Below are positions 1 through 64,000 of a DNA stretch of 64,000 nt, piece after piece; the stretch's first letter is position 1, and each line of letters starts with the position of its first letter. The stretch comes from Escherichia coli (lineage in GTDB: Bacteria; Pseudomonadota; Gammaproteobacteria; Enterobacterales; Enterobacteriaceae). The position numbers and the translations under genes were made by a program. The stretch lies in assembly GCF_011045215.1 (NCBI RefSeq), contig NZ_CP049201.1; one strand, given 5' to 3'. The notes beneath the pieces were generated by a model. The model searched no databases. It was not told the origin of the DNA and was given only the letters and a program-made list of their open reading frames with translations.

Positions 1-1
1 T

Positions 2-478
2 TACAATTTACTCCTGTTGATTGATGTCGGTGAATCTGGTCAACACAAACAATCTTTTGCCACCATAGCCACACAAGTTTTTGAAAAAGGCTATGATTTC
101 AGGCACGGTATTGCACTGGCTATTCCTGTGCTCATTACTGAATTATTAACCCGGTTAATGTGGACATGTAAACAATGGTTATATCATAAAAAGCCCTTGA
201 CTGAGTGTGTACCTGTAGAAAATGATCCGGAGTTAAGAAGAATGTTACTGATTGCTCATGGAACGCTCTGTATGATTGATGCTGGTGATGCAGCATTTAG
301 ATCCGGTGGTAATTTGATGACGTTTCTGCTGAGAACTAATATGGTCGGCTGGGTTCGGTTTGGTATGCTTGCGTTAAAAGAAGTTCATGGGTTATACAAC
401 ACAGGTCATATTGATGTTGATTCGGTTGATAAATATCTGGATACTGAATTAGAAAGATTATCATCTCATCTATACTAA
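2..478 (+). CDS. Hypothetical protein, C-terminal fragment; reading frame is open to the left window edge, so the 5' end is missing
   Basis: ORF track 17..478 begins at a TTG, but the same frame has no stop back to position 2. No recognisable motif. Lies inside the selC island. Confidence 0.4.
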   Translation, partial: YNLLLLIDVGESGQHKQSFATIATQVFEKGYDFRHGIALAIPVLITELLTRLMWTCKQWLYHKKPLTECVPVENDPELRRMLLIAHGTLCMIDAGDAAFRSGGNLMTFLLRTNMVGWVRFGMLALKEVHGLYNTGHIDVDSVDKYLDTELERLSSHLY

Positions 479-703
479 TCCCTCTGACAGGCCATTCTGC
501 TATAAAGACATGGGATGAATGATAATGATTGTCGGCGCTTTTTTCACGAAGGAAAGGGTAGTGACAGCCAGGTTTACAATGTACCGCTGCATATGTGGCG
601 GTTGACTATATCGGCTTCACGGTTTTCAGGATAAAGCATTAATCAGTAGTCCTGTATTAAGTATATCTGCCTCAGGCGAACATACTGTATTTTATAAATT
701 TTT

Positions 704-2308
704 ATGAAAAACAACCTTCTTTTTATATTCCTGTCGCGGATTAATAATGATAAAAGTATTGTGTTATCTGTGATTGTTTTTACGCTTGCTAATATGATTG
801 TATCATCAGGTGCACATCTGATTTATCGGGTATTATTCTTTACCCTGACTCTCCTTATTATCAAGAAGATAAAGTTATTTACGCTGCGTTTGATTCTTGC
901 TTTTCCGTTCACGTTACTGACTGCTGCAGATATCAGTATCAGCCTGTATTCATGGTGTACATTTGGCACAACATTTAATGATGGTTTTGCAATCAGTATC
1001 CTTCAGACAGATCCTGATGAAGTAATAAGAATGTTCAGGATGTATGTTGTTTATGTTATCGCATTTATTATCCTCTTTTTATTGTTCTTCTGTTCAGCAA
1101 TAAATAAAACGTCCTCATTGCCATCGGAAAAGGTCACGGTAATTACATTTTTATTGTTAATTACAGTAACGTTATATTCTTCCTTTCAGTTTGCGTTGAA
1201 GAAACAGTATCAAATAAATGAAGTTGATCCTTACATAGTCGCTTCCCGGTTTGCCACATATACCCCTTTCTTTAATCTGAACTATTTTGCACTGGCCGCA
1301 AAGGAGCATCAGAGATTAATGACGATTGCTGATACCATACCTCACTACGAGCTGATGATTACAGACAATAATATTGATGAATTTGTACTGATCATCGGTG
1401 AATCAGCAAGGACTGATAACATGTCCATTTACGGGTATTCGCGCCCAACCACACCAGAACTTCAGAAACAGAAATCACGGCTGAAACTGTTCACTCAGGC
1501 AATCAGTGGCGCACCTTACACTGCGCTGGCTGTTCCTCTGGCGTTGTCTGCCGATAGTGTACTGCATCATGATATCCGTAATTACCCTGATAACATTATC
1601 AACATGGCGAATCAGGCAGGGTTCGATACCTGGTGGCTCAGTGCGCAGTCCGCTTTCCGGCAGAACGGAACGGCTGTGGCCAGTATCGCCATACGGGCCA
1701 GAAACAGAATTTATGTCAGAGGCTATGATGAGTTACTGCTCCCACATCTGGCTGAAGCACTGAACAGTAATCCGGGAAGAAGGAAACTGATTGTTCTGCA
1801 TCTGACGGGCAGCCATGAACCAGTCTGCAGTAACTGGCCCAGAGATAAAGCCGTGTTTAAACCACTGGATACAGAAGAAGTCTGCTACGATAATTCCATT
1901 CATTATACCGACAGTTTGTTGGGGCGGGTTTTCGCCATGCTGGAAACGCGTCAGGCATCAGTCATGTATTTTTCAGATCACGGTCTGGAGTATGACCCGA
2001 CAAAAGAACATGCCTATCTTCATGGCGGAATAAAACCCAGCCAGCAGGCTTATCATGTTCCGATGTTTATCTGGTACAGCCCGGCTCTGGGAGAGCATGT
2101 CGATCGCCAGACGGTGAACAGCGTTTTTTCTACTGCGTATAATGATTATCTGATTAATGTATGGATGGGCGTAACCAGACCAGCTCAACCGAAAACGCCG
2201 GAGGAGGTGATCACCCGCTGGCAGGGGAAATCAAATGTTATTGATGCAAACCATAACGTGTTTGACTACAACGTATTACGAAAGAACTTTAATGAACCCC
2301 TGGAATAA
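704..2308 (+). CDS. Phosphoethanolamine transferase family protein (N-terminal multi-pass membrane region plus sulfatase-like catalytic domain; EptA/EptB/OpgE-like)
   Basis: 534 aa. Hydrophobic N-terminal third (e.g. LIIKKIKLFTLRLILAFPFTLL, VVYVIAFIILFLLFF). Periplasmic domain has the LIIGESARTDNMSIYGY motif typical of PEtN transferases, a candidate Thr nucleophile region (ISGAPYTALAVP) and a C-terminal HxxG-type region. Visibly AT-rich compared with the flanking core genes. Confidence 0.7.
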   Translation: MKNNLLFIFLSRINNDKSIVLSVIVFTLANMIVSSGAHLIYRVLFFTLTLLIIKKIKLFTLRLILAFPFTLLTAADISISLYSWCTFGTTFNDGFAISILQTDPDEVIRMFRMYVVYVIAFIILFLLFFCSAINKTSSLPSEKVTVITFLLLITVTLYSSFQFALKKQYQINEVDPYIVASRFATYTPFFNLNYFALAAKEHQRLMTIADTIPHYELMITDNNIDEFVLIIGESARTDNMSIYGYSRPTTPELQKQKSRLKLFTQAISGAPYTALAVPLALSADSVLHHDIRNYPDNIINMANQAGFDTWWLSAQSAFRQNGTAVASIAIRARNRIYVRGYDELLLPHLAEALNSNPGRRKLIVLHLTGSHEPVCSNWPRDKAVFKPLDTEEVCYDNSIHYTDSLLGRVFAMLETRQASVMYFSDHGLEYDPTKEHAYLHGGIKPSQQAYHVPMFIWYSPALGEHVDRQTVNSVFSTAYNDYLINVWMGVTRPAQPKTPEEVITRWQGKSNVIDANHNVFDYNVLRKNFNEPLE

Positions 2309-2364
2309 TTCGTTAAAGTAATTTACGACTCTATTCTTTTTTAAAGGAAACTTTCAGAAAATAA

Positions 2365-2385
2365 CCCCAGGGCGATAACCTGGGG
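2365..2385. terminator. Hairpin between the convergent PEtN-transferase and TPR-like genes; possible bidirectional terminator
   Basis: ccccagggcgataacctgggg: a 6-bp GC stem (cccagg/cctggg) flanked by A/T-rich sequence. Confidence 0.35.
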
Positions 2386-2454
2386 AAGGGGGTTTAGTGT
2401 GTTATTACTGGTGGATAAATTATTACTTGTTTGAAAAATACACTAATGCAATAT

Positions 2455-3498
2455 CTACTGATGCTGGATGCTTGAGTGTTTCATTCCTGCCGCTGAAAAC
2501 GGCAATATCCAGGGCCAGACATATTCACCGTTAATATTTCTGCATTTCTGTACAATTTCCTCAGAAAGTGTCTCATCAATTCTTTCCCACAACAACTTCT
2601 GCTGTCTTAAAATGCTTTCGCATATTTCGAAATCATCTTCCTGCATCAGCATTTCGGCGCATTTAATGATTTCTGCCCGTTCATGCAGCACAGAGGAATG
2701 GTTATAGAGCCAGTTTACAAACAGCAATGCTTCCGGATATTGTCCCCATAATGGTGAGTATGTTGCATAATAATCTTCGGCAGTATCCGGCCCGGCAGAA
2801 TAGTTATGCCATACAGCAAGAGGAAATGGATGCAGATTTCCGCACAGTATTTCTGCGATGTAAGTATTTGCCGTAAAGCCACGACGAAATGCAGTTGCAG
2901 CTTTTTCCAGTTCCCCATTAAGAAAATGCAGAAGGCCGAGTTCATACCAGTAAGGTGAAAATTCATCAGCGTACTCATTCAGTACACGGAAAGCTCGCTC
3001 ATGATCACCTGTTCGTAACAGTTCTGAACCCAACAACCAGCGGGTACCCTGATTATCTTCAGGATTGTATGCCAGTATTTTCTCAATGAGCATGATGGCA
3101 TCCTGATGACGTTGTAAATGTACATTTGCCAGGATTGCTGCATAAAGCGCGCGCAGATAAGGCCGGTTTTCGGGATGCATCCAGATGATTTCACCACTGA
3201 AACTTTCCGGGATGAGACGATTACCTGCCGCCAGTCCTTTAAGAGCGGCGTTCAGTGCCTTACGCGGGGCATTCTGCTCCAGAAATGCATATGCCAGATG
3301 AGCGTGTATATCAATAAAGTCAGGCTCCTGTTGAGCAAGGCGTCTGAGTTTGTTGATGTAACTCGCCTCACTGATTTCACCAGTATCGTATGTATCAAGC
3401 AGTTTTTCAAACTCCCCCGGTAATGGGCAAAACCAGGTATCCGGAAATACGAAACGCCCTTGGTTATCGTTTACTTTAAAGCGTAATTTGTCGTTCAT
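2455..3498 (-). CDS. Hypothetical protein with TPR-like helical repeats, function unknown
   Basis: 347-aa ORF with a clean start and an AT-rich upstream region. Ala/Leu-rich helical repeat character (e.g. ALKGLAAGNRL, YAAILANVHLQRHQDAIMLIEKILAYNPEDNQG, ELGLLHFLNGELEKAATAFRRG). No catalytic motif recognised. Confidence 0.55.
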   Translation of the reverse strand: MNDKLRFKVNDNQGRFVFPDTWFCPLPGEFEKLLDTYDTGEISEASYINKLRRLAQQEPDFIDIHAHLAYAFLEQNAPRKALNAALKGLAAGNRLIPESFSGEIIWMHPENRPYLRALYAAILANVHLQRHQDAIMLIEKILAYNPEDNQGTRWLLGSELLRTGDHERAFRVLNEYADEFSPYWYELGLLHFLNGELEKAATAFRRGFTANTYIAEILCGNLHPFPLAVWHNYSAGPDTAEDYYATYSPLWGQYPEALLFVNWLYNHSSVLHERAEIIKCAEMLMQEDDFEICESILRQQKLLWERIDETLSEEIVQKCRNINGEYVWPWILPFSAAGMKHSSIQHQ

Positions 3499-3850
3499 TT
3501 TCTGAGCCTGTAAAACGGATTGGACACAATCTGAAAAGCATAAAAGTCGTGATGTTGTGTATCAAGTCTTGTTTTTGTCCGGGATGAATGTTGTTTACAA
3601 TATCATCGACAGTGTTTTTATATGAGAATGAAAATTTATCTTTATCTGCATTCCAATGTATTGTGAATTGTCAGCTGAAACAGCATATTAATCGATTTTT
3701 TGATAATGGTGCTGAAATAACGACAGGATGATGATTGAAACTACTGGTATCAAAATTGTTAGCGGTCCATAATGGTGTGATGTTTTGAGATTGTTTATAG
3801 ATGCAATATTAAATATTTTGTCAAAAAACAAAAAATACCTAAAAATAAAG

Positions 3851-3888
3851 CATAAAAACAAAATTCCTCCGGACCAGGAGGCCGGAGG
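3851..3888 (-). terminator. Rho-independent terminator downstream of the integrase gene
   Basis: Stem cctccgg...ccggagg (3866-3888) followed on the minus strand by a T-rich run. Confidence 0.4.
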
Positions 3889-3928
3889 AGAATTTGTGGA
3901 TTGAGAGAAAATATCAGGACAAGTGCTC

Positions 3929-5119
3929 TTAACCCTGACTCTCTTGCTTAGAAAGCGAATCAATATAATCTGCGTACCACTGCATCATTTCACGGCGACC
4001 ATCGAGATACTGGGCATGATTATAGGTACCCCTGATGGCGTTTTTATCCACATGAGCTAACTGCATTTCAATCCAGGCGGAATTAAAGCCCTGTTCGTGC
4101 AGAATGGTACTCATGGTGTGTCTGAAACCGTGCCCTGTGAGTCTTCCCTTATATCCCAGTAATTCAATGACTTGGTTAATGCTTTCCTTACTAATTGGCT
4201 TGCGAGGATCGTTCCTACCGATAAAGACCAGAGGATGATGTTTTGTGATGGGTTCAAGTTGCTTAAATAGGGCAATGACCTGCTCAGAGAGCGGCACAAT
4301 ATGAGGTCGCTTCATCTTCATTACTTTTGCCGGAATCTCCCATAATTTTGTCTCAAAATCGATATCCTCCCAGCGTGCGAAACGTAATTCTTGTGTTCGT
4401 ACACCAGTTAACATAATGATCTGAGTAGCTGTCTTAGTGATGATACTTCCGGTATAACCCGCCAGATCGTTGAGGAAGTGGGGAAGTTCATTAGCAGTAA
4501 GAAAGGGAAAATGTACTTTTTTCGGTGTAGCTAAAGCACAGGCAAGATCGGGAGCAGGGTTGTAGTCTGCCCGACCAGTAACAATTGCATAGCGGAACAC
4601 TTCACCACAGCGCTGGCGGACTTTGCGCATTTTCTCCAGAGCTCCACGTTTTTCCATTTTACGCAGTGCTTCCAGTAACTCCATTGGTTTGATTTCGGCG
4701 ATAGGGCGTTTGCCAATGTAGGGAAAAATGTCTTTTTCAAAGGTATCAATGATTTCATCACGATAGCGTAATGACCACCGATCGGCTTTTGACTGATGCC
4801 ATTCGCGAGCAATGGCCTCGAACGTATTTTTCAAACTCATTTGTTGCGCGATTTTTTCTTCTTTTTTTGCCACCCCTGGATCGCCTCCAGCAGCGAGGAT
4901 TTTTCTGGCTTCGCTGCGTTTTTCACGAGCGTCGGCTAGCGTTACATCGGGGTATACGCCAATAGAAAGCATCTTTTCTTTACCAGCAAAGCGGTACTTC
5001 ATACGCCAGTATTTAGAACCATTAGTGTTAATCAGTAGATACATACCGCCGCCATCAGCAAGTTTATAGGGCTTTTCTTTTGGTTTTGCGGTTTTCACTT
5101 TAATATCGGTTAATGCCAT
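3929..5119 (-). CDS. int: P4-family tyrosine integrase (site-specific recombinase)
   Basis: 396 aa. C-terminal catalytic region with the conserved R...HxxR...Y residues (LTGHGFRHTMSTIL, IRGTYNHAQY). Same orientation as, and directly downstream of, the tRNA 3' end, the canonical layout for tRNA-targeting islands. Confidence 0.9.
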   Translation of the reverse strand: MALTDIKVKTAKPKEKPYKLADGGGMYLLINTNGSKYWRMKYRFAGKEKMLSIGVYPDVTLADAREKRSEARKILAAGGDPGVAKKEEKIAQQMSLKNTFEAIAREWHQSKADRWSLRYRDEIIDTFEKDIFPYIGKRPIAEIKPMELLEALRKMEKRGALEKMRKVRQRCGEVFRYAIVTGRADYNPAPDLACALATPKKVHFPFLTANELPHFLNDLAGYTGSIITKTATQIIMLTGVRTQELRFARWEDIDFETKLWEIPAKVMKMKRPHIVPLSEQVIALFKQLEPITKHHPLVFIGRNDPRKPISKESINQVIELLGYKGRLTGHGFRHTMSTILHEQGFNSAWIEMQLAHVDKNAIRGTYNHAQYLDGRREMMQWYADYIDSLSKQESQG

Positions 5120-5417
5120 GACATCCTCCGGCTTTTAATGAATTCATGTTCCTGAGGGGGACTTCTGCCAGTAATTAACCTGATACCCCCAATGCACCCC
5201 TTGTATAACAAAGATGTTGTTGAAAGCCGTTGTTATATATCATATTTTACCAATTATGGGGGTGCTGATATTTCAATAGGAAATAATACCCCCTAAAGTA
5301 CCCCCAAAAGCAACTTGATACGGGGTGAAGTCGGTTGACTTCTGGATACAAAGGAATCCTGATATACAAGGGATTAGAAGGGGTGGTTGACATCGGGGGA
5401 GTTCAGAAGATGTTAAT

Positions 5418-5512
5418 TGGCGGAAGATCACAGGAGTCGAACCTGCCCGGGACCGCTGGCGGCCCCAACTGGATTTGAAGTCCAGCCGCCTCACCGGAGA
5501 CGACGATCTTCC
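5418..5512 (-). tRNA. selC: tRNA-Sec (selenocysteine tRNA)
   Basis: 95-nt reverse-complement match to the E. coli selC sequence (GGAAGATCGTCGTCTCCGGTGAGGCGGCTGGACTTCAAATCCAGTTGGGGCCGCCAGCGGTCCCGGGCAGGTTCGACTCCTGTGATCTTCCGCCA) as I remember it; the 3' CCA is at 5418-5420. Confidence 0.95.
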
Positions 5513-34471: not shown

Positions 34472-34822
34472 AGTAAATAGCTGACTTATGGATGTGCTGG
34501 GGATTCTATGTATTTAGCTGTGGCTTTACCATTACTTTTCCCGTTTTTGACTTAAATAGCAATTTACCCGCCAATTCTTGCTGAACATCTATACTTTTTT
34601 TGTATTTTTATGCGATTCATTGATTTCTGCTGTACGTGCAGGAAGGAATCGCAGAGCAACAGTGAAAGAATATGGTTGCTAATGATTATATTTGATTGAT
34701 TTCTTTATTGAAAATCAACAATGTGCTTAAAAATCATTCGGGTCGGATTGCCGCGAAAGAAGTGATACACTAGCGCGTCAATATCAGTGCGGTATCAGTA
34801 TTCAGGTAGCTGTTGAGCCTGG

Positions 34823-34834
34823 GGCGGTAGCGTG
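34823..34834 (+). promoter_or_regulatory. ops element (RfaH-dependent antitermination signal) in the JUMPstart region upstream of waaQ
   Basis: GGCGGTAGCGTG in the 5' leader of the waaQ operon. Confidence 0.7.
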
Positions 34835-49953: not shown

Positions 49954-50988
49954 ATGATGAACAGCACCAATAAACTTAGTGTTATTATTCCGTTATATAA
50001 TGCGGGCGATGATTTCCGCACTTGTATGGAATCTTTAATTACGTAAACCTGGACTGCTCTGGAAATCATTATTATTAACGATGGTTCAACGGATAATTCT
50101 GTTGAAATAGCAAAGTATTACGCAGAAAACTATCCGCACGTTCGTTTGTTGCATCAGGCGAATGCTGGCGCATCGGTGGCGCGTAATCGTGGGATTGAAG
50201 TGGCAACGGGCAAATATGTCGCTTTTGTCGATGCTGACGATGAAGTCTATCCCACCATGTACGAAACGCTGATGACCATGGCGTTAGAGGACGACCTCGA
50301 CGTGGCGCAGTGCAACGCTGACTGGTGTTTTCGTGAAACGGGAGAAACCTGGCAATCCATCCCCACCGATCGCCTTCGCTCAACCGGCGTCTTAACCGGC
50401 CCGGACTGGCTGCGGATGGGGCTTTCTTCGCGCCGTTGGACACACGTGGTCTGGATGGGGGTTTATCGCCGCGATGTTATTGTTAAAAATAACATTAAAT
50501 TTATTGCCGGATTACATCATCAGGATATTGTCTGGACAACAGAATTCATGTTTAACGCGCTGCGTGCGCGATATACCGAGCAATCATTATATAAATATTA
50601 TCTGCATAATACGTCAGTGAGTCGGTTGCATAGACAAGGGAATAAAAACCTTAATTATCAACGTCACTATATTAAGATTACCCGCCTGCTGGAGAAATTA
50701 AATCGAAATTATGCCGACAAAATTACGATTTATCCGGAATTTCATCAGCAAATAACTTACGAAGCATTGCGTGTTTGCCATGTGGTGCGCAAAGAGCCGG
50801 ATATTCTTACCCGCCAACGGATGATTGCCGAGATATTTACTTCCGGTATGTATAAGCGCCTGATTACCAATGTGCGCAGCGTGAAGGTGGGTTACCAGGC
50901 GTTACTGTGGTCTTTCCGCTTATGGCAATGGCGCGACAAAACGCGGTCGCACCATCGCATTACGCGTAGCGCCTTTAATTTGCGCTAG
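49954..50988 (+). pseudogene. waaH: waaH (yibD) GT2 glycosyltransferase interrupted by an in-frame TAA stop at codon 31
   Basis: Translation from the ATG at 49954 gives MMNSTNKLSVIIPLYNAGDDFRTCMESLIT, then TAA at 50044-50046, then the same frame continues TWTALEIIIINDGSTDNS... for another 313 codons to the normal stop at 50988. The track reports only the internal-Met remainder (50146..50988, 280 aa). Confidence 0.8.
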
Positions 50989-51934
50989 CGTTAAGTTTTG
51001 CCGCTTCGGGCTGTTTGCCCCAGCCTTGCCACTGATGCTGGAAGTAAACGATCAGCGTGCTCTGGCTGATGCTTTCGCTTAATACTTCAAAGAAGCGATT
51101 AGCATAAACAGGTTCTATCGGTTTCTTCGGTTTGCACAGCTTCACGCCACGGAACGGATTACGCGGTGTGTCGGGCACAGTGTTTTTCGGCGGTGTAGAC
51201 GTATCAACCTGCGGTTCATTCAGCAAGCTGCTGGCTTTCACCAGCGTAATGTCTGGCGGCAGGTTATAAACCATCTGTTGTAGCACGCGTACCGTTGAAG
51301 GGTGAGGATGCCCAATGGCAATGGTTGAACCGTTGCGACGCGCCAGATCAATTGCGCGATTGAACTGCACACGGATGTCCGCTTCGTTCTGTGAATCGTC
51401 GAGGAACACCTTCCGTTTAATAACCTTCACGCCAGTGCCTTGCGCGGCGCGCATCGCCTGGGTATTACCAATGGTTACGCTGTCGAGGAAGTAAAGATTG
51501 TAACGCTCCAGTGCCTGCATCACTTTCTGCATACCAAACAGGTTAGAGGTCATCTTGCTACCCATGTGGTTGTTGATCCCCACGGCATAGGGCACGTTAT
51601 TGACCGCACTACGAATAATGCGCTCAATTTCGTCGCTGCTCATCTCTGGGCGCAGCGTATTTTTCTCCAGCGGCTGTTTACTCAACGGTGCCATTGGTAG
51701 ATGAATCAACACTTCGTGACCGCTGTTATGCGCTTTGGTCGCCATCTCTCTGGCGTGCGGTGAATCGGGTAATACAGCGACGGAGATAGCGGAAGGCATC
51801 GCCAGCACCTGGTTTTCGTTGTGCGGGCGATACCCAAAATCATCAATGACGATGGCAAGTTTGCCAGCAAGTACGGGGGAGGAGAGCGCCAACAGAGCGG
51901 CAAATGCAAGAACGTTACGACGAAATGGAAACAA
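50975..51934 (-). CDS. yibQ: Divergent polysaccharide deacetylase family protein
   Basis: 319 aa; signal peptide; synteny with envC. Confidence 0.85.
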   Translation of the reverse strand: MFPFRRNVLAFAALLALSSPVLAGKLAIVIDDFGYRPHNENQVLAMPSAISVAVLPDSPHAREMATKAHNSGHEVLIHLPMAPLSKQPLEKNTLRPEMSSDEIERIIRSAVNNVPYAVGINNHMGSKMTSNLFGMQKVMQALERYNLYFLDSVTIGNTQAMRAAQGTGVKVIKRKVFLDDSQNEADIRVQFNRAIDLARRNGSTIAIGHPHPSTVRVLQQMVYNLPPDITLVKASSLLNEPQVDTSTPPKNTVPDTPRNPFRGVKLCKPKKPIEPVYANRFFEVLSESISQSTLIVYFQHQWQGWGKQPEAAKLNASAN

Positions 51935-51937
51935 AGC

Positions 51938-53197
51938 TTATCTTCCCAACCACGGCTGTGGATTGACCGCCTGACCCTGGCGGCGAATTTCGAAATAGAG
52001 TGAAGGCCGACCCTGACCGCCACTGCTGCCCACCAGTGCAATCGGCTGGCCCGCGCGAACCTGCGAACCAACGCTCACCAGCGCGCTCTGATTATAGCCG
52101 TAAAGACTCATGTCGCCTTTACCATGCTCAACCACCACCACCAAGCCATAACCTTGCAGCCAGTCAGCCAGAATCACCCGACCGTCGGCAATCGCTTTAA
52201 CTTCAGTACCTTCAGAGGCACCGATCACCATTCCTTTCCAGCGTAATTCACCCTGTAGCTGCTCGCCATAGCGATGCAGCGTAGGGCCACGAACTGGCCA
52301 GAATGCCTGACCACGCGGCGCACCCAGGCCACCAGTTCGGGACATCAGCGATTTTTCGCTTTCAGTCGGTTTGTAGGTGGTGCCTTTACGCGTCGCTTCT
52401 TTCTGGCGGTCGCGAACCGCCTGGGCCTCACGTGCTTCTCGTTCTGCACGCGCTTTCGCCGCGGCTTCCGCACGGGCAATGCTGTTACGCAGACGGGATT
52501 CGTTGGCGCGCAGCTCGCTCAACTGTTGCTGACCTTGCTGGATGGAAGACTCCAGCCCTGCCAGCGTCTTTTTACGCTCGTTCAGCGCCTGAGTCAGTTT
52601 CGCCTGTTGGGCGCGCTGCTCATATAACAGCGTTTGTTGCTCGCTCTGTTTCTCTTCCAGTTCAGCACGCTGCATGGCGACTTCTTCACGCGTTTGCTTC
52701 AACTGGGCAATGGATTCTTGTCGCGCCTGGTTGAGATAGCCGAAATAAGCCTGTAAACGCTGTCCACGCTGGCTTTCTTCACCGCTGAGAATCAGCTGAA
52801 TACCGGTATGCTCGCCCTGACGGAATGCGGCATCCAGTTGTGCGGCGAGGCTGCGCTCCTGGGCGGCTTTTTGCTGCTCCAGTTTGGCAATCGACGCGTT
52901 CATCTCATCAATCTGTTTATTGAGTTGATTGAGCGTGTTTTGCGTTTCGCGCAGCTTACGGGTGGCTTCCGAGATCGCTTCTTCCTGCTTTTTCAATTGT
53001 GCGAGCAGGCTTGCGCGTTGTTGTTGCTTTTGGCGTACCGCGCGCTCTTTCGCGGCGATATCGGCCTGAATAGATTTGAGTTGGTCACGCTCATCCGCGT
53101 GGGCGGAAAAGGCGCACAACAATACGCCAGCGCTAAGAACGCTGGCGTAGATGATGGGCCTGATTGCAAACCTGCGCGGTTTCACGGCCCGTGTCAT
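51938..53197 (-). CDS. envC: Murein hydrolase activator EnvC (coiled-coil plus LytM/M23-like domain)
   Basis: 419 aa from MTRAVKPRRFAIRPIIYASVLSAGVLLCAFSAHA; long Q/A/E-rich coiled coil; C-terminal M23-like domain. Confidence 0.9.
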   Translation of the reverse strand: MTRAVKPRRFAIRPIIYASVLSAGVLLCAFSAHADERDQLKSIQADIAAKERAVRQKQQQRASLLAQLKKQEEAISEATRKLRETQNTLNQLNKQIDEMNASIAKLEQQKAAQERSLAAQLDAAFRQGEHTGIQLILSGEESQRGQRLQAYFGYLNQARQESIAQLKQTREEVAMQRAELEEKQSEQQTLLYEQRAQQAKLTQALNERKKTLAGLESSIQQGQQQLSELRANESRLRNSIARAEAAAKARAEREAREAQAVRDRQKEATRKGTTYKPTESEKSLMSRTGGLGAPRGQAFWPVRGPTLHRYGEQLQGELRWKGMVIGASEGTEVKAIADGRVILADWLQGYGLVVVVEHGKGDMSLYGYNQSALVSVGSQVRAGQPIALVGSSGGQGRPSLYFEIRRQGQAVNPQPWLGR

Positions 53198-53230
53198 GGT
53201 ATTAATCGCCTTTCCCCTCATGGGGAGGGA

Positions 53231-54775
53231 TTATTCCACGATGAACAGCGGCTTACCAGTCATCTCTTGCGGGATTTCCATACCCATCAGCGACAACATG
53301 GTCGGCGCGATGTCAGAAAGTTTGCCGCCTTCAACCGCTTTCACGTTCTTATCACCAACGTAAATCAGCGGAACTGGCAGGTTGGTGTGTGCCGTGTGTG
53401 CCTGACCCGTTGCCGGATCGCGCATCTGTTCAGCGTTACCGTGGTCAGCGGTGATCAGCAGTTGTCCACCTACAGACTCAACCGCTTTCGCAACTTCATT
53501 CACGCAGTGATCCAGCGCTTCAACGGCTTTAACTGCTGCTTCCATCACCCCGGTGTGACCTACCATGTCACCGTTCGGGTAGTTACAGATGATGGTGTCG
53601 TATTTGCCGCTCTTGATTGCCGCAACCAGTTTTTCGGTCAGCTCTGCGGAGCTCATTTCCGGTTGCAGATCGTAGGTAGCCACTTTCGGTGAGTTGATCA
53701 GAATGCGATCTTCGCCTTTGAACGACTCTTCTACGCCACCGTTGAAGAAGAAAGTAACGTGGGCATATTTTTCGGTTTCGGAAATACGCAACTGAGTTTT
53801 GTCGTTTTTCGCCATCCACTCGCCGAAGGTGTTAACCAGGGAAGCGGGTGGGTAAGCAACCGCAGTTTTGATGTCAGCGGCGTATTCGGTCAGCATCACG
53901 AAATCGACGTTAACCACTTTCTTACGCGCGAAGCCATCGAAATCAGCGTTCACGAAAGCACGAGTGATTTCACGCGCACGGTCAGCACGGAAGTTCATGA
54001 AAATCAGCGCATCGCCGTCTTCCATTGCCGCATCTGGCTGACCTTCTGCACGAATAACGGTCGCTTTCACGAACTCGTCGTTTTCGTCGCGAGCATAAGC
54101 TGCCTGCAAACCAGCAACGGCGGTATCGGCCTGGAACTCACCTTGCGCCAGAGTCAGCAGGTCATAAGCTTTTTCAACGCGATCCCAACGGTTATCGCGG
54201 TCCATCGCGTAGTAACGACCAATGATGGACGCTACGCGGCCTTTACCCAGCGCGGCAAATTTCTCTTCGAATTTTTTCAGCGAGGATTCAGCACTGCGCG
54301 GCGGAGTGTCGCGACCGTCAAGGAATGCGTGCAGGTAGATTTTTTCTGCGCCGCGTTCAGCTGCCAGTTCTACCATCGCCATGATGTGATCTTCGTGGCT
54401 GTGTACGCCGCCTGCGGAGAGCAGACCCATAATGTGTACCGCTTTGCCTGCGTTTTTCGCTTTATCTACCGCGCCAGTCAGCACTGGATTAGCAAAGAAA
54501 GCGCGATTTTTGATTTCAACGTCCAGACGAGTCAGGTCCTGATACACGATGCGGCCGGCACCCAGGTTAACGTGGCCTACTTCGGAGTTACCCATCTGAC
54601 GGTCAGGCAGACCGACTTCCAGACCGGAAGCGTCGATCAGGGTATGCGGACGATTGGCCCACAGTGCATCCATTACCGGGGTTTTAGCACTAAAAATGGC
54701 GTTATCCTGCTGTTCTTCGCGATAGCCATAGCCATCCAGAATCACCAGTACCATAGGTTTTTTAGAAACCGACAT
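53231..54775 (-). CDS. gpmM: 2,3-bisphosphoglycerate-independent phosphoglycerate mutase
   Basis: 514 aa from [21 protein letters not shown]; the track ORF has a 48-codon upstream extension. Confidence 0.95.
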
Positions 54776-55019
54776 TGCGACAACCTCATACTCAAGAGTC
54801 AAAATTTGCGTAATTTTACTACAGCTGAATCGATAAAATAGCCTCTGAAGATCAAAATATACGACCGCTCGCGGCAAGCCGATGCCAGATTTGCGCTTTT
54901 TTTTCGTCGTGCCCCGCAAAATTGCATTCCAGTTAACGCGCTGGCTGTATTTGCCGCACCGCGCAGGTATACTCCTTTCCTGGTTTTTTTAATCACTACG
55001 TCGGGAGTTGTTACCCCCC

Positions 55020-55451
55020 ATGCAAGAAATTATGCAATTTGTTGGCCGTCATCCCATACTGAGTATCGCCTGGATCGCGTTACTGGTGGCGGTTCTTGTG
55101 ACTACGTTTAAGAGCCTGACCTCGAAAGTGAAGGTGATTACTCGTGGTGAAGCTACGCGTCTGATCAACAAAGAAGACGCTGTGGTTGTGGATTTACGTC
55201 AGCGTGATGACTTCCGTAAAGGCCATATCGCAGGTTCTATCAATCTGTTGCCGAGCGAAATCAAAGCCAACAATGTTGGTGAGCTTGAGAAGCACAAAGA
55301 CAAACCGGTTATCGTGGTAGACGGTTCTGGCATGCAGTGCCAGGAGCCTGCAAACGCACTGACGAAAGCTGGTTTTGCGCAAGTATTCGTGCTGAAAGAA
55401 GGCGTCGCTGGCTGGGCTGGCGAAAACTTGCCTTTGGTGCGCGGCAAATAA
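55020..55451 (+). CDS. yibN: Rhodanese-domain inner membrane protein
   Basis: 143 aa from [27 protein letters not shown]; rhodanese fold; synteny. Confidence 0.85.
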
Positions 55452-55592
55452 TTTACCTGTCGTCTTTCATGATGCAGGCCGTTAGCTGCAATTAGGCCCC
55501 CAGTGACTTATTGTTATAAGCTTCTGGGGACACTCCATTTTGCTGCCGCCCTGCAACATGAAATTTCAGGGTAAAAAAACAGGAGCTAATTT

Positions 55593-55844
55593 ATGGCCAA
55601 TGTTGAAATCTATACCAAAGAAACCTGCCCGTATTGCCATCGTGCAAAAGCACTGCTGAGCAGCAAGGGTGTGAGTTTCCAGGAGCTGCCGATCGATGGC
55701 AACGCCGCCAAGCGTGAAGAGATGATCAAACGCAGCGGTCGCACCACGGTTCCCCAGATTTTTATTGACGCACAGCACATTGGCGGCTGTGATGACTTGT
55801 ATGCATTGGATGCACGTGGTGGACTGGATCCCCTGCTGAAATAA
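55593..55844 (+). CDS. grxC: Glutaredoxin 3
   Basis: 83 aa, [22 protein letters not shown] (CPYC active site). Confidence 0.95.
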
Positions 55845-55906
55845 CGTGTGAACGTTGGCATTACATTGCGCAGTATTTAAGGACAACACTTAAGGGTTTT
55901 CTACAC

Positions 55907-56374
55907 ATGTCAGAACAAAACAACACCGAAATGACTTTCCAGATCCAACGTATTTATACCAAGGATATTTCTTTCGAAGCGCCGAACGCGCCGCACGTTT
56001 TCCAGAAAGATTGGCAGCCAGAAGTTAAACTTGATCTGGATACGGCATCTACTCAACTGGCAGATGACGTTTACGAAGTGGTACTGCGTGTTACCGTAAC
56101 GGCCTCCCTGGGCGAAGAAACCGCGTTCCTGTGTGAAGTTCAGCAGGGCGGTATTTTCTCCATCGCGGGTATCGAAGGCACCCAGATGGCACATTGCCTG
56201 GGCGCATACTGCCCGAACATTCTGTTCCCGTATGCTCGTGAGTGCATCACCAGCATGGTATCCCGCGGTACATTCCCGCAACTGAACCTTGCGCCGGTTA
56301 ACTTCGATGCGCTGTTCATGAACTATTTGCAGCAGCAGGCTGGCGAAGGTACTGAAGAACATCAGGATGCCTGA
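55907..56374 (+). CDS. secB: Protein-export chaperone SecB
   Basis: 155 aa, [29 protein letters not shown]. Confidence 0.95.
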
Positions 56375-57393
56375 TGAACCAACGTAATGCTTCAATGACT
56401 GTGATCGGTGCCGGCTCGTACGGCACCGCTCTTGCCATCACCCTGGCAAGAAATGGCCACGAGGTTGTCCTCTGGGGCCATGACCCTGAACATATCGCAA
56501 CGCTTGAACGCGACCGCTGTAACGCCGCGTTTCTCCCCGATGTGCCTTTTCCCGATACGCTCCATCTTGAAAGCGATCTCGCCACTGCGCTGGCAGCCAG
56601 CCGTAATATTCTCGTCGTCGTACCCAGCCATGTCTTTGGTGAAGTGCTGCGCCAGATTAAACCGCTGATGCGTCCTGATGCGCGTCTGGTGTGGGCGACC
56701 AAAGGGCTGGAAGCGGAAACCGGGCGTCTGTTACAGGACGTGGCCCGCGAGGCGTTAGGCGATCAAATTCCGCTGGCGGTTATCTCTGGCCCAACGTTTG
56801 CGAAAGAACTGGCGGCAGGTTTACCGACAGCCATTTCGCTGGCCTCGACCGACCAAACTTTTGCTGATGATCTTCAGCAGCTGCTGCACTGCGGCAAAAG
56901 TTTCCGCGTTTACAGCAATCCGGATTTCATTGGCGTGCAGCTTGGCGGCGCGGTGAAAAACGTCATTGCCATTGGTGCGGGGATGTCCGACGGTATCGGT
57001 TTTGGTGCGAATGCGCGTACGGCGCTAATCACCCGTGGCCTGGCTGAAATGTCGCGTCTTGGCGCGGCGCTGGGTGCCGATCCTGCCACCTTTATGGGCA
57101 TGGCGGGGCTGGGGGATCTGGTGCTTACCTGTACCGACAACCAGTCGCGTAACCGCCGTTTTGGCATGATGCTCGGTCAGGGCATGGATGTACAAAGTGC
57201 GCAGGAGAAGATTGGTCAGGTGGTGGAAGGCTACCGCAATACGAAAGAAGTCCGCGAACTGGCGCATCGCTTCGGCGTTGAAATGCCAATAACCGAGGAA
57301 ATTTATCAAGTATTATATTGCGGAAAAAACGCGCGCGAGGCAGCATTGACGTTATTAGGTCGTGCACGCAAGGACGAGCGCAGCAGCCACTAA
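56374..57393 (+). CDS. gpsA: NAD(P)H-dependent glycerol-3-phosphate dehydrogenase
   Basis: 339 aa, [35 protein letters not shown]; start overlaps the secB stop by 1 nt. Confidence 0.95.
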
Positions 57394-57472
57394 CCCCAGG
57401 GAACCTTTGTTACCGCTATGACCCGGCCCGCGCAGAACGGGCCGGTCATTATCTCATCGTGTGGAGTAAGCA

Positions 57473-58294
57473 ATGTCGTGTGAAGAACTGGAAATTGTCT
57501 GGAACAATATTAAAGCCGAAGCCAGAACGCTGGCGGACTGTGAGCCAATGCTGGCCAGTTTTTACCACGCGACGCTACTCAAGCACGAAAACCTTGGCAG
57601 TGCACTGAGCTACATGCTGGCGAACAAGCTGTCATCGCCAATTATGCCTGCTATTGCTATCCGTGAAGTGGTTGAAGAAGCCTACGCCGCTGACCCGGAA
57701 ATGATCGCCTCTGCGGCCTGTGATATTCAGGCGGTGCGTACCCGCGACCCGGCAGTCGATAAATACTCAACCCCGTTGTTATACCTGAAGGGTTTTCATG
57801 CCTTGCAGGCCTATCGCATCGGTCACTGGTTGTGGAATCAGGGGCGTCGCGCACTGGCAATCTTTCTGCAAAACCAGGTTTCTGTGACGTTCCAGGTTGA
57901 TATTCACCCAGCAGCAAAAATTGGTCGCGGTATCATGCTTGACCACGCCACGGGTATCGTTGTGGGTGAAACGGCGGTGATTGAAAACGACGTGTCGATT
58001 CTGCAATCCGTCACCCTTGGCGGTACTGGGAAAACTAGCGGCGACCGTCACCCGAAAATTCGTGAAGGCGTGATGATTGGCGCGGGCGCGAAGATTCTCG
58101 GCAATATTGAAGTTGGTCGCGGCGCGAAGATTGGCGCAGGTTCCGTGGTGCTGCAACCGGTGCCGCCGCATACCACCGCCGCCGGCGTTCCGGCACGCAT
58201 TGTCGGTAAACCAGACAGCGATAAGCCATCAATGGATATGGACCAGCATTTCAACGGTATTAACCATACATTTGAGTATGGGGATGGGATCTGA
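57473..58294 (+). CDS. cysE: Serine O-acetyltransferase
   Basis: 273 aa, MSCEELEIVWNNIKAEARTLADCEPMLASFYHATLLKHENLGSAL; hexapeptide repeats. Confidence 0.95.
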   Translation: MSCEELEIVWNNIKAEARTLADCEPMLASFYHATLLKHENLGSALSYMLANKLSSPIMPAIAIREVVEEAYAADPEMIASAACDIQAVRTRDPAVDKYSTPLLYLKGFHALQAYRIGHWLWNQGRRALAIFLQNQVSVTFQVDIHPAAKIGRGIMLDHATGIVVGETAVIENDVSILQSVTLGGTGKTSGDRHPKIREGVMIGAGAKILGNIEVGRGAKIGAGSVVLQPVPPHTTAAGVPARIVGKPDSDKPSMDMDQHFNGINHTFEYGDGI

Positions 58295-58346
58295 TGTCCT
58301 GTGATCGTGCCGGATGCGATGTAATCATCTATCCGGCATGGCGTCA

Positions 58347-58820
58347 CTAATCTCTCAACACCGCTCCCGGATATCCCAGCTGCCGCCAGGCTTCATACAC
58401 CACTACCGACACCGCATTGGACAGGTTCATGCTGCGGCTGTCTGGCACCATCGGAATGCGAATTTTTTGTTCAGCGGGCAGGGCATCAAGAATGCTCGCT
58501 GGCAGGCCGCGTGTTTCCGGGCCGAACATCAGATAATCGCCATCCTGATAGCTTACGGCGCTGTGAGCAGGCGTACCTTTCGTGGTGAGGGCAAACAGGC
58601 GCTGGGGATTTTCTGCTTCGAGGAACGCGCTGTAGTCATGATGACGCGTAACGGCGGTAAACTCGTGATAGTCCAGCCCCGCGCGGCGCAGGCGCTTATC
58701 GTCCCAGGCAAATCCCATCGGTTCGATGATATGCAGACGAAAGCCGGTATTAGCGCAAAGACGGATGATGTTGCCAGTATTTGGCGGAATTTCTGGTTCG
58801 TAAAGTACGATGTTTAGCAT
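58347..58820 (-). CDS. trmL: tRNA (cytidine/uridine-2'-O)-methyltransferase
   Basis: 157 aa SPOUT methyltransferase, [34 protein letters not shown]. Confidence 0.9.
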
Positions 58821-58871
58821 ACTGCCCCCTTAGTGCGGGGGCAGGATAGCAGAAAATTGGTGAGCAGTGCG

Positions 58872-58968
58872 GCCTTTTCCCCTCACCCCGGCCCTCCCCC
58901 TGTCTCTTGATCAGGAGATCTGATCAAGAGACAGCTCCCTGAGGGAGAGGGTTAGGGTGAGGGGGCGC
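58872..58968. repeat. GC-rich imperfect palindrome (about 95 bp) whose 35-bp core is two inverted copies of an IS50 inside-end-like 16-19-mer
   Basis: Core at 58900-58934: ctgtctcttgatcag gag atctgatcaagagacag. Flanking arms ccctcaccccggccctcccc and ctccctgagggagagggttagggtgaggg are also roughly reverse-complementary. Sits between the lldD stop and the trmL start. Confidence 0.6.
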
Positions 58969-58974
58969 AAACGA

Positions 58975-60165
58975 CTATGCCGCATTCCCTTTCGCCATGG
59001 GAGCCAGTGCCGCAGGCAACTCTTTACCCAGCCCCTGCACCAGCGAATCTTGCGTAATTTCATTGATCGATTTCGCGCCAGTCAGCGTCATCGCCACTTT
59101 CATCTCTTTTTCGATCAGATTTAGCAGGTTAGCTACACCCGCCTGGCCCGCTGTTGCCAGCGCATACAGGAAAGCACGACCCAGCAGTACGGTGTCGGCA
59201 CCGAGCGCAATCATACGCACGACATCAAGCCCGTTACGAATTCCGCTATCCGCCAGAATGGCTATATCACCTTTCACCGCATCTGCAATAGCGGGCAACG
59301 CACGAGCGGAAGAGAGTACACCGTCCAGCTGGCGGCCACCGTGGTTAGAAACTACAATCCCATCAGCACCAAAACGTACTGCATCGCGCGCATCTTCCGG
59401 ATCGAGGATCCCTTTGATCACCATCGGGCCATCCCAGAAATCGCGGATCCACTCAAGGTCTTTCCATGAGATGGACGGATCGAAGTTATTCCCCAGCCAG
59501 CCGATGTAATCTTCCAGTCCGGTCGGTTTGCCGAGATAAGCTGAGATATTACCTAAATCATGTGGACGACCGTTCAGGCCCACATCCCACGCCCATTGCG
59601 GATGTGTCACCGCTTGCAAATAGCGGCGCATTGCCGCGTTCGGGCCGCTCATTCCAGAATGCGCATCACGATAACGCGCTCCCGGTGTCGGCATATCCAC
59701 GGTGAAAACCAGCGTCGAACAACCCGCTGCTTTTGCTCGCTCCAGCGCGTTACGCATAAAGCCGCGATCGCGCAGTACATAAAGCTGGAACCACATTGGG
59801 CGCTTGATGGCTGGCGCGACTTCTTCAATCGGGCAAACGGAAACCGTCGAGAGAGTAAACGGAATGCCATGCGCATCCGCCGCTTTGGCTGCCTGAACTT
59901 CGCCGCGTCGCGCATACATGCCACACAAACCTACCGGACCTAGCGCCACCGGCATCGACAATTTCTCATTAAACAGCGTCGTTTCCAGGCTTAAGTCGGA
60001 CATGTTTTTCAGAATACGCTGGCGCAGCGCCACTTCTGACAAATCTTCCACGTTGCGGCGCAGCGTGTATTCAGAATATGCACCCCCATCCATATAGTGG
60101 AACAGGAACGGCGGCAGAATGCGTTGCGCTGCGGCGCGATAATCGCTGGCTGCGGAAATAATCAT
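58975..60165 (-). CDS. lldD: L-lactate dehydrogenase (FMN-dependent)
   Basis: 396 aa, [42 protein letters not shown]. Confidence 0.95.
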
Positions 60166-60938
60166 GCGTTTTTCTCCCTCGAATGCTCATTATGCTCACC
60201 GGGCAGGCGGGTAATCCGTGCGTGGCGAGCCTGATCTTCATCGAATCGTTTCATGGTGGTGTGAACAAAACTAAGGTGCGCCATCATTGCTTTACGCGCC
60301 CCATCGGCATCACCAGCAAAAATGGCGTCAATGACAGCCTGATGTTGTTCGGTCAGTTGTGAAAAAACCGGTGGCACCAGATACATCCGCTGACGGCTAT
60401 GCTTCACTGAGGATTGCAGGACATCGAAGAAACCGCGCATGGTTTGCAGCAGCACGATGTTATGTGAGGCTTCGGCAATCGCCAGATGAAAACGAACGTC
60501 CGCTTGTGAGGCGATATCCGGGTCTTCACTTAGCGTTGCTTCAAAGCAAAGCTGAATCTTTTCTTTGTCGCCAGGTGTGGCGCGCATTGCCGCATGCCAT
60601 GCGGTGCTGGCTTCAATGGCGTAGCGGGCTTCCAGAATATCGAAACTGTAATCCGGATCATCGGCCATCAGCGTTTTTAGCGGCTGGACGATGTTTTGCT
60701 CCGACCATGTGTCATGACGCCAGCGAATAAACGTCCCGCCGCCGCGTCGACTGAGCAGCACGCCTTCGCTCACCAGTTTTGCCAGCGCCTCGCGCAGTGA
60801 ATTACGTGATACGCCGAGTTGCATCGCCAGTTGACGTTCAGCGGGCAACTTCATGCCCGCTTCCAGGTTTTTTTCATCAATCAGCGCCCGCACACGATCG
60901 GCAACCTCGTCTGACAGGCGTCTGGGTAAAACAATCAT
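60162..60938 (-). CDS. lldR: GntR-family regulator of the lld operon
   Basis: 258 aa from [52 protein letters not shown] (HTH). Confidence 0.9.
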
Positions 60939-62593
60939 TAAGGAATCATCCACGTTAAGACATAAGCCTGAAGCGTGGTGATCACGCCCACCATACAGGT
61001 GAAGATCAGGCTGTGTTTGACAGTAAAGCGGAACAAATCAGACTCTTTGCCCACCAGGCCTACCGCCGCACAGGCGATAGCGATAGATTGCGGGGAGATC
61101 ATCTTACCGGTGACGCCACCGGTGGTATTGGCGGCAACCAGCAACAGATCAGAGACGCCAATTTGTTGTGCTGCGGTGGCTTGCAGCGCGGCGAACAGGG
61201 CGTTAGATGAGGTATCCGACCCGGTCAGGAATACCCCCAGCCAGCCGAGGAACGGCGAGAAGAAGGTGAATGCATGACCGGTGTGCGCCAGTGCCAGCGC
61301 CAGTGTTGATGACAGTCCGGAATAGTTCGAAATAAAGGCGAATGCCAGCACCATACCGATGGAGTAGATGGGCAGAGCCAGTTCTTTCAGCGTGCTGCCG
61401 AAGGTGCTGATAGCGTCAGACGGTTTCATCTTCAGCCAGACAACCGAGAGCAGCGCAGCAAACAGAATGGCGGTACCGGTGGCAGAGAACCAGTCGAACT
61501 TAAACACGGCGGCATAGGCTGTAGCCTCGCTGACCACTGGCGGCATACGGGCAACCAGTTTATCGAGGTACGGCACCGGAATATTGATCACCCATTCATA
61601 CAGCGCACCACCCGAAGCGAACAGGGCTTTAAACGGCGGGATGCTCCACAGTGTAACGGTAGCGGTCAGGAACAGGAACGGTGTCCAGGCACGTAACACC
61701 TGACCCGCAGTGTAACCGGTGTGGGCCAGCGTCATATCAACCTGTGACGCCCCCAAATCACCAAAACGGAATACGCGCACTGGCTGCCAGCGTTTGAGGA
61801 ACAGCGTCAGGCAGAGCAGTGATACCAGTGAAGAGATAATGTCCGGCAGCTCCGGCCCAATGAAGTTAGAGCTAAGGTACTGAGCGATGGCAAACGAGCC
61901 GCCCGCAACCACGACCGCAGGCCAGGTTTCTTTGATACCGCGCCAGCCGTCCATAATCGCCATGATCCAGAACAGCACGATAATGGTCATAAACGGTAGC
62001 TGCCGCCCCACCATCTGACCAATCTCAAAGCTGTCGATACCTGTTACCTGTCCGGCAACCAGGATTGGAATGCCCATCGCGCCAAATGCCACTGGCGCGG
62101 TGTTAACAATCAGGCACAGCCCAGCGGCGTACAGCGGTTTAAAGCCCAGGCCGACCAGCAATGCGGCGGTAATTGCTACCGGTGCGCCAAAGCCTGCGGC
62201 TCCTTCAAGGAAAGCGCCGAAACAGAAACCGACGATCAGCATTTGCAGACGCTGGTCAGGGGTTATCGAAAGAATAGACGAGCGAATGATGTCAAACTGC
62301 CCGGTTTTCACCGAGATCTTATAGACGAACACTGCTGCAATAATGATCCACGCGATGGGCCACAACCCGTAGAAGAAGCCATAAACCACCGAGGCCAGCG
62401 CGTTAGCGACCGGCATTTTATAGAACAGCAAAGCCACGGCAAGGGCGATTGCCACTGTCCATGAGGCGGCGATGTATCCTTTCAGTTTGAGCTTAATCAG
62501 CGCAAAGAAGAAAAACAGGATGGGAAGCGATGCTATCAGGCTGGAAAGCCAGATATTCCCGGCGGGACCGTAGTTTTGTTGCCAGAGATTCAT
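60938..62593 (-). CDS. lldP: L-lactate permease
   Basis: 551 aa from [30 protein letters not shown]; stop overlaps the lldR start by 1 nt (TAATG). Confidence 0.9.
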
Positions 62594-62830
62594 TGCAGGT
62601 CTCCTGGAGTCCACGCACATCGTGTAATGAGTCTGTTGCTCATCTCCTTGTCACACGTTGTGTAAAAGTGGCACTGCCAATTGTGTTGTGTAGGGATAAT
62701 GACAATGAATGGTTAACTAAATGTTATGTATTGGCAACATTGATGTGAGTTTTAATTGGGGAATTGTGAACCAGAGGTCAGATAAGCGAAGAATTGGTAG
62801 GGCCAATTCTTGTGGGGGGAGATGTCTGGT

Positions 62831-62866
62831 AAAGAAAAGGGCAATCCTCATCAGAGAATTGCCCTT
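62831..62866 (-). terminator. Hairpin terminator, minus strand, downstream of the adhesin gene
   Basis: Stem aagggcaat/attgccctt followed on the minus strand by ttttcttt. Confidence 0.4.
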
Positions 62867-62879
62867 AGATTGTTGACCC

Positions 62880-62985
62880 GGTGCGCCTTATCTTGCCAGA
62901 TGCGGCGTGAACACCTTACTCGGCCTATAGGAATGTGCAGAATCACCCTGTAGGCCTGATAAGCGTAGCGCATCAGGCAATTTGG
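62880..62985. repeat. REP/BIME-like extragenic palindromic repeats (two inverted REP units)
   Basis: gccagatgcggcgtgaacaccttactcggcctatagg and ccctgtaggcctgataagcgtagcgcatcaggca resemble the enterobacterial REP (PU) consensus. Confidence 0.55.
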
Positions 62986-63019
62986 CGTTTGCCCTTAGTC
63001 ACACTAACTTAATGGATCA

Positions 63020-64000
63020 TTACCACTGAATACCGGCACCGAGTGCGGCGGAGTATTCACCCTGGCTATTGGTACTACCTTGTAATTTGTAGACCCAACG
63101 ACCATTGGCGCTCACCATCGATACACCTAAAGCAACTGCCGATTCACCGTTGTAAGTACCGCCACCAATAGAAGCCATGCTGGCACCTGGAGTGTAAGCC
63201 TGCGGCAGACCGGTCATTGCCATTGCAGAAGCGATACCACCGCTCAACTTGCTTTCAGTTTTAGACAGTTTGTTATCCATCTCAACCATCCGCTGATCGG
63301 TGTATTGCTTCGTTTCCTGCACGCTTTGCTTCAACTGCGCGTAGTTCACCGCGTCGTTGTTGTTGACGCCAGCGGAGACGTTGCTGATACGAGTCGTACC
63401 GCCGTTGCCGCCACCGAGGGTGATATTGCTATAGTCGATAGAACCATCAGCTTTGGTGTCGTAACGCACGCCGCCCGCCTCAGAAGACTTCAACTGCGCA
63501 ACGTTAACAGCATCGGTAGCATTTTTACCTGCGGCAACGTTAGTAATACGGCGTTGGTTAGTGGAAGAACCTACAGAGATTGTATTTTCTTCATCTGCAA
63601 CGGAACCGGTACCCAGTGCGACACTGTTGTCAGCGGCAGCAATGGAACCAGAACCAATAGCAACGCTATCTTTACCCTGGGCGTTGGCATCTACGCCATC
63701 GGTGTTGGTCTTGAAGTACTTGGTGCTACCGGTGGTTACAATGTCGCCAATACCGTTTTCGATATTAGTAACGCGAGTATCCAGATTAGTGACCTGATTG
63801 TTCAGGTTAGTAATGCTCTGGGTATTTTGCGCTACGCGCTCATCAGTGACTTTCAACTGACCCACGTTAACCGCATCGGTATCCGCTGAACCAGCTGCGA
63901 CGTTTGTGATCTGACGTTGACCGTCTTCACTACCAACAGAAAACTCACCTACAGAGTTCTGTGGTGCGTCCATGTTGTAGGCGGTGTAGCCAGTCTGTGC
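63020..64000 (-). CDS. Trimeric autotransporter adhesin (YadA-like), C-terminal part only; gene continues beyond the right window edge
   Basis: Frame is open to the window end. Repetitive Gly/Ser/Thr/Asn-rich head/stalk repeats ([54 protein letters not shown]), a coiled-coil neck and a YadA-type C-terminal anchor ending ...[10 protein letters not shown]. Confidence 0.75.

Follow-up and report, generated by a model that had tools for sequence, protein, structure and literature searches.

A long reading frame was identified at the right edge of the window (the whole stretch of 64,000 nucleotides of Escherichia coli DNA under analysis), where translation of the minus strand gave 326 codons without a stop, from base 64000 down to a TAA codon at 63020-63022 ('tta' on the plus strand). 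An open frame running off this edge had been noticed in a preliminary description made from the sequence, and it was recognized here again with the addition of its strand, which had been missing. Since the gene lies on the minus strand with its N-terminus to the right, only the C-terminal part of the product is included in the last 981 bases of the window, corresponding to 19% of the adhesin gene (326 of about 1,700 codons). The encoded fragment has a high content of G, A, S, T, N, and V and contains neither Cys nor His, a composition typical of fibrous adhesins. The adhesin gene is followed within the window by lldP (60938-62593), lldR, lldD, trmL, and cysE, all on the same strands as in strains CFT073 and Sakai. 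In the mechanical list of open reading frames, lldP was recorded as a frame of 560 aa from an upstream ATG (60938-62620, minus strand); relatives carry an annotated LldP of 551 aa with the start at 62593, and this 551-aa version is recorded in a public assembly.

Table 1. Features identified within the window. Positions are those of the whole 64,000-nucleotide stretch; residue numbers (aa) are those of the 326-residue visible fragment of the adhesin.
Feature	Position	Strand	Remarks
Sulfatase-family phosphoethanolamine transferase	704-2308	+	selC island
TPR protein	2455-3498	-	selC island
P4-type tyrosine integrase	3929-5119	-	selC island
Terminator-like hairpin (13 pairs, 4-nt loop) with T-rich tail	62827-62866 (hairpin 62866 to 62837)	-	153 nt downstream of adhesin stop
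Pair of REP-like palindromic elements	62883-62978		Inverted repeat; between adhesin stop codon and terminator
3' part of UpaG/EhaG/SadA-type adhesin gene	63020-64000	-	326 codons and TAA; 5' part of about 4.2 kb past right edge
YadA-type membrane anchor, aa 266-326	63023-63205	-	Four beta-strands per chain; Pfam PF03895
Anchor-proximal helix/coiled coil, aa 219-265	63206-63346	-	Hia 3EMO (aa 188-326, E 6e-19), 2GR7, YadA 3H7X
Neck motif 3, aa 207-224	63329-63382	-	Regular expression and Pfam YadA_stalk
Small beta-rich insert between necks 2 and 3, aa 172-206	63383-63487	-	Gapless alignment with SadA 2YO3
Neck motif 2, aa 154-171	63488-63541	-	Regular expression; best YadA_stalk stretch is aa 151-175
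Connector, then short YadA-like head repeats, aa 89-153	63542-63736	-	Pfam YadA_head; PDB matches YadA head 1P9H, SadA 2YO0/2YO3
Heptad coiled-coil stalk segment, aa 49-88	63737-63856	-	Register analysis; homologous SadA segment solved in 2YO0, 2YO3
Neck motif 1, aa 33-50	63851-63904	-	Regular expression and Pfam YadA_stalk
End of preceding beta-rich head segment, leading into neck 1, aa 1-32	63905-64000	-	Aligns with SadA 2YO0, chain residues 117 onward

Three Pfam families were detected in the translated fragment, all above their curated cut-offs: YadA_stalk in three stretches (E 3.4e-32; 111 bits, cut-off 28.4), YadA_head also in three stretches (E 3e-11, 43.8 bits against a cut-off of 25; the best at aa 107-133), and YadA_anchor (PF03895) at aa 266-326 (E 6e-20; 71.5 bits, cut-off 22.7), the last being matched over the full model (1-60 of 60). 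This set is in agreement with the architecture of type Vc trimeric autotransporters proposed in the preliminary description, and the YadA-type anchor ending in GAGIQW noted there is the PF03895 domain. By regular-expression search, exactly three copies of the unit NV[AS]AG...DAVN[VY][AG]QLK were found, as previously counted. The three units, regarded at that time as repetitive head/stalk motifs, are thus present, but they represent 'neck' connectors (Pfam YadA_stalk) and not head repeats. Since Tandem Repeats Finder reported no tandem repeats at the DNA level in 62600-64000, the neck motifs are alike as protein only and have diverged as DNA. The coiled-coil segment, also noticed before, was located by its heptad register, which is unbroken over 39 residues (aa 49-87) with a core mostly of L, V, or I at the a and d positions (L49, T52, V56, N59, I63, L66, V70, L73, V77, I80, I84, and I87), including one core asparagine (N59) at a d position.

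In the search against solved structures, SadA fragments were the best matches, followed by the anchors of Hia, YadA, and AtaA (9VNJ) and by the heads of other trimeric autotransporter adhesins. The best partial matches in NCBIfam were likewise to trimeric autotransporters only (BimA, EmaA, YadA, Ata, and Vomp), all with scores far below the whole-protein cut-offs, as is to be expected for a fragment of a different member. No RNA family of Rfam was detected in or near the adhesin region. The small insert at aa 172-206 shows no variation among five E. coli orthologues apart from position 200, and the anchor (aa 266-326) shows 100% conservation across UpaG, EhaG, and three further orthologues. 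By homology, the helix at aa 219-265 is predicted to pass the barrel pore, and the architecture of UpaG, including such an anchor-proximal helix, has been described (PMC5670179). The C-terminal residue of the fragment is an aromatic one, W326, at the position of the beta-signal, and corresponds to W1778 of UpaG, of which the substitution by alanine strongly impaired the assembly (PMC5670179).

The gene order mtl, yibT, yibL, gene for SadB-like lipoprotein, gene for trimeric autotransporter adhesin, lldP, lldR, lldD, trmL, and cysE was observed in all of CFT073, Sakai, 33F4, F9792, and KFu022. The mtl/yibL side lies outside the window, and the positional match seen here is that of the lld side alone; on this side, the neighborhood of UpaG and EhaG that had been named in the preliminary description was indeed found, with the order shared with CFT073 and Sakai. 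The site of sadA between the mtl and lld operons is known to be conserved in Escherichia, Salmonella, and Shigella, with sadB located directly upstream of sadA and forming one operon with it, and a deletion of 5 kb has removed both sadB and sadA from K-12 (Grin et al., PMC3953254). In the genome of K-12 MG1655, yibL adjoins lldP directly and the sadBA pair is absent. A gene for SadB-like lipoprotein is located upstream of the intact adhesin gene in five of the five relatives inspected. The SadB-like protein of 33F4 carries an LTGC lipobox, and was identified through the solved structure of SadB (4C47, E 9e-71), since no family was found for this protein in Pfam or NCBIfam.

Between the adhesin gene and lldP, the terminator-like hairpin (62837-62866) is kept in K-12, CFT073, and Sakai, and is the probable site at which the adhesin transcript ends, before the promoter region of lldP. 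The palindromes at 62883-62978 are, judged by the REP consensus, presumably REP elements. When the segment 62600-64000 was used as a query, the median number of matching places per E. coli genome was 17, probably because of these REP-like palindromes. In the DNA alignment, the sequence on the left of about position 62953 is conserved in K-12, CFT073, and Sakai, and this conservation, K-12 being included, places the right-hand junction of the sadBA deletion of K-12 inside the REP pair. In Sakai, 57 bp of the REP pair have been lost relative to the window. Because the K-12 junction (about 62953) and the 57-bp deletion of Sakai are both situated inside the pair, the REP-like repeats are suggested to be a breakpoint for rearrangements at this locus.

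Upstream of lldP, the perfect palindrome AATTGGTAGGGCCAATT is situated at 62792-62808, in the lldP leader, and a half-site related to it, AAGTGGCACTGCCAATT, at 62666-62682. Both sequences are invariant in K-12, CFT073, and Sakai, and we take them to be two putative LldR operator sites of the lldPRD promoter. At the opposite end of the window, an accessory island (1-5512) was observed 3' of selC, the tRNA-Sec gene at 5422-5512 on the minus strand; the genes identified in the island are included in Table 1. With bases 1-2400 as the query against 5,426 complete E. coli genomes, the transferase region (690-2400) showed at most about 94% identity to any of these genomes, and no near match to bases 1-689 was found among them. 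In ETEC O169:H41 relatives, leoA and leoB adjoin the selC island. In addition, a JUMPstart element was detected by Rfam at 34796-34834 on the plus strand (55.2 bits, gathering score 35), presumably belonging to the waa (LPS core) operon leader.

The distribution of the adhesin region was examined by megablast with 62600-64000, and a region at coverage of at least 80% was found in 4,148 of the 5,426 complete E. coli genomes. The best identity of the window to these genomes was 97.8% for 1-25000 and 98.9% for 39001-64000. The exact LldP of the window was found on one public contig only, Logan SRR11014969_69, which is 100% identical to 50938-62976 of the window and ends inside the REP pair, 44 bases before the adhesin stop codon. 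An exact 115-base pattern taken from the window end gave no match among the GTDB species-representative genomes. The window belongs to an uncommon lineage of E. coli.

Length variability through internal repeats, expected from the preliminary description, was observed among the full-length orthologues, which consist of 1588 aa in O157:H7 Sakai (adhesin ECs_4480, EhaG), 1674 aa in KFu022, 1709 aa in F9792, 1715 aa in 33F4, and 1778 aa in CFT073 (annotated as 'trimeric autotransporter adhesin UpaG'), those of KFu022, F9792, and 33F4 being annotated as YadA-like protein. In the 33F4 gene, a 234-bp unit is repeated 5.1 times, and the 33F4 protein carries an ESPR signal peptide (PF13018, aa 1-48), 14 stalk stretches, and nine head stretches. 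Upon alignment of the five full-length orthologues, the C-terminal 326 residues were 96-100% identical and gapless, whereas the N-terminal sequences of about 1,300 residues shared only 68-91% identity, and each pair had 130-280 columns with gaps. The adhesins of 33F4 and F9792, for instance, are identical at the C-terminus, but only 74% identical in the N-terminal region of about 1,300 residues, indicating that the visible fragment cannot tell a UpaG-like allele from an EhaG-like or other allele. With 96-100% identity among alleles, the C-terminal 326 residues do not allow typing of the adhesin; the remainder of the gene is required before the function can be called UpaG-like or EhaG-like, and the adhesive specificity is not readable from this conserved C-terminus. 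The parts of the locus that would be located past base 64000 are those for the signal peptide and the main heads, the slippage-prone repeat region, and sadB. Because the lineage is uncommon, with best identities of 97.8-98.9% and the exact LldP in one other assembly, there is some small chance that the N-terminal passenger is an unsampled allele, whose head and repeat modules are combined in a new way or present in a new number and whose binding specificity is hence different.

The feature at the right edge is, with high probability, the 3' end of the E. coli chromosomal gene for trimeric autotransporter adhesin at the mtl-lld locus. An alternative is a pseudogene or remnant, in which the 3' end has stayed intact while a frameshift within the repeats, a stop, an IS element, or a partial deletion interrupts the 5' part, and no adhesin is made. 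In favor of this reading, the 5' part of about 80% of the gene lies outside the window, orthologues carry long and near-perfect tandem repeats prone to slippage (234 bp × 5.1 in 33F4), and the loss of the whole sadBA pair from K-12 (also PMC3953254) indicates that the locus is dispensable. Disruption is nevertheless quite improbable, because all of the 326 codons are open and the protein is identical to that of an intact relative with a single synonymous change in the DNA, unlike a decaying gene; in addition, five of the five relatives inspected carry an intact annotated gene without a pseudogene flag, and the best matches are not non-adhesin proteins, all of the 25 listed top matches being annotated as YadA-like or YadA-family protein. 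The 5' part of the gene is probably intact as well.

Two other readings concern the identity of the frame itself, and both are extremely improbable. The anchor and the neck motifs are common to all trimeric autotransporter adhesins, and the partial NCBIfam matches to BimA, EmaA, YadA, and Ata might be taken for a different adhesin such as Eib, Saa, or one horizontally acquired, sharing only the generic YadA anchor with the UpaG type. Every NCBIfam match is, however, far under the full-length cut-off, the 97% identity to UpaG and EhaG extends across 326 residues including the non-generic connector and insert, and the gene occupies the chromosomal site of upaG and ehaG. This candidate was ruled out by the identity to UpaG and EhaG over all 326 residues. 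As to the coding strand, the mechanical list includes a TTG-started ORF of 194 aa on the plus strand (63305-63889), of which the minus frame could be a chance or antisense artefact, but the minus frame has matches in three Pfam families and among proteins characterized by experiment, and it never stayed open in 20,000 shufflings of its 978 bases. The plus-strand ORF at 63305-63889 was rejected for its lack of a Pfam family and its location antisense to a conserved gene; no family match was obtained for the plus-strand ORFs over the adhesin gene.

For the adhesin encoded by the minus frame, the following pathway is proposed on the basis of homology and the studies of biogenesis and function of this adhesin type (PMC5670179, PMC3953254, PMC7247748). 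A precursor of roughly 1,600-1,800 residues would be exported by Sec with an extended signal peptide, and three chains would associate in the periplasm with the aid of SadB, the inner-membrane trimeric lipoprotein encoded just upstream. The four C-terminal beta-strands of each chain (aa 266-326) are predicted to form one 12-stranded barrel (3 × 4), which the Bam complex would insert after recognition of the terminal aromatic residue W326, and three helices (aa about 219-265) would run through its pore. The passenger would then emerge and zip into a fiber of alternating coiled coils, necks, and small beta-heads; of this fiber, three necks, one heptad coiled coil, and one short head are included in the window. 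The product is expected to be a surface-displayed obligate homotrimer, as judged from the trimeric structures of SadA, Hia, and YadA and the biochemistry of UpaG (PMC5670179). Such a surface fiber may bind extracellular-matrix proteins and epithelial cells and may mediate autoaggregation and biofilm formation; for both UpaG and EhaG, the binding of matrix proteins has been reported, as have autoaggregation and the formation of biofilms (review PMC7247748).

The gene identified here is an already known and well-characterized adhesin gene at a known locus, and its scientific value beyond correct annotation is little, since UpaG, EhaG, and SadA are all characterized adhesins, for which fiber fragments have been solved, the biogenesis has been studied, and the status of vaccine candidate has been reached. 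The annotation itself tells that the strain carries a locus of the sadBA type that K-12 has lost. Expression of upaG and ehaG is reportedly repressed by H-NS, as is said to have been found by Totsika and coworkers in 2012.

The gene is called upaG in uropathogenic and ehaG in enterohaemorrhagic strains, and its name in Salmonella is sadA. The identity with UpaG and EhaG, suggested but left unconfirmed in the preliminary description, was verified by gapless alignment over the entire fragment. With UpaG of CFT073 (c4424, WP_001033292.1), 317 of the 326 residues are identical (97.2%) at UpaG aa 1453-1778; most of the nine substitutions fall within the first coiled coil (ERVA versus AQVS, for example), none falls within the last 126 residues, which include the anchor, and upaG is located directly upstream of lldP in the same orientation as in the window. 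With EhaG of O157:H7 Sakai (ECs_4480, NP_312507.1), 315 of the 326 residues are identical (96.6%) at EhaG aa 1263-1588, the C-terminal end of this 1588-aa protein; 11 substitutions were found, and the locus is as in the window. The agreement is complete (326/326 residues) with WP_473254498.1, the intact 1715-aa adhesin of E. coli 33F4 (calf, Switzerland), of which the DNA shows a single synonymous difference from the window in the coding part and 99.27% identity over 53600-64000 of the window. Protein identity over the 326 residues is also 100% for WP_032201238.1 from ETEC O169:H41 strains and for the adhesin of F9792, and 100% (rounded) for that of KFu022. Since WP_473254498.1 and WP_032201238.1 share only 74% identity over about 1,300 N-terminal residues, neither is a guide to the part of the gene outside the window.

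In comparison with UpaG and EhaG, SadA of Salmonella enterica (STM3691) is from another genus, shows lower identity, and is shorter, with the length of 1461 aa. Its crystallized fragments 2YO0 and 2YO3 were aligned with the visible part of the adhesin, both gapless, at 88.5% identity over 174 aa (E 2e-95 for 2YO0/2YO1) and 77.5% identity over 204 aa (E 2e-91), respectively. SadA is about 147 kDa in size, and both EhaG and SadA are classified as positional orthologues of UpaG (review PMC7247748).
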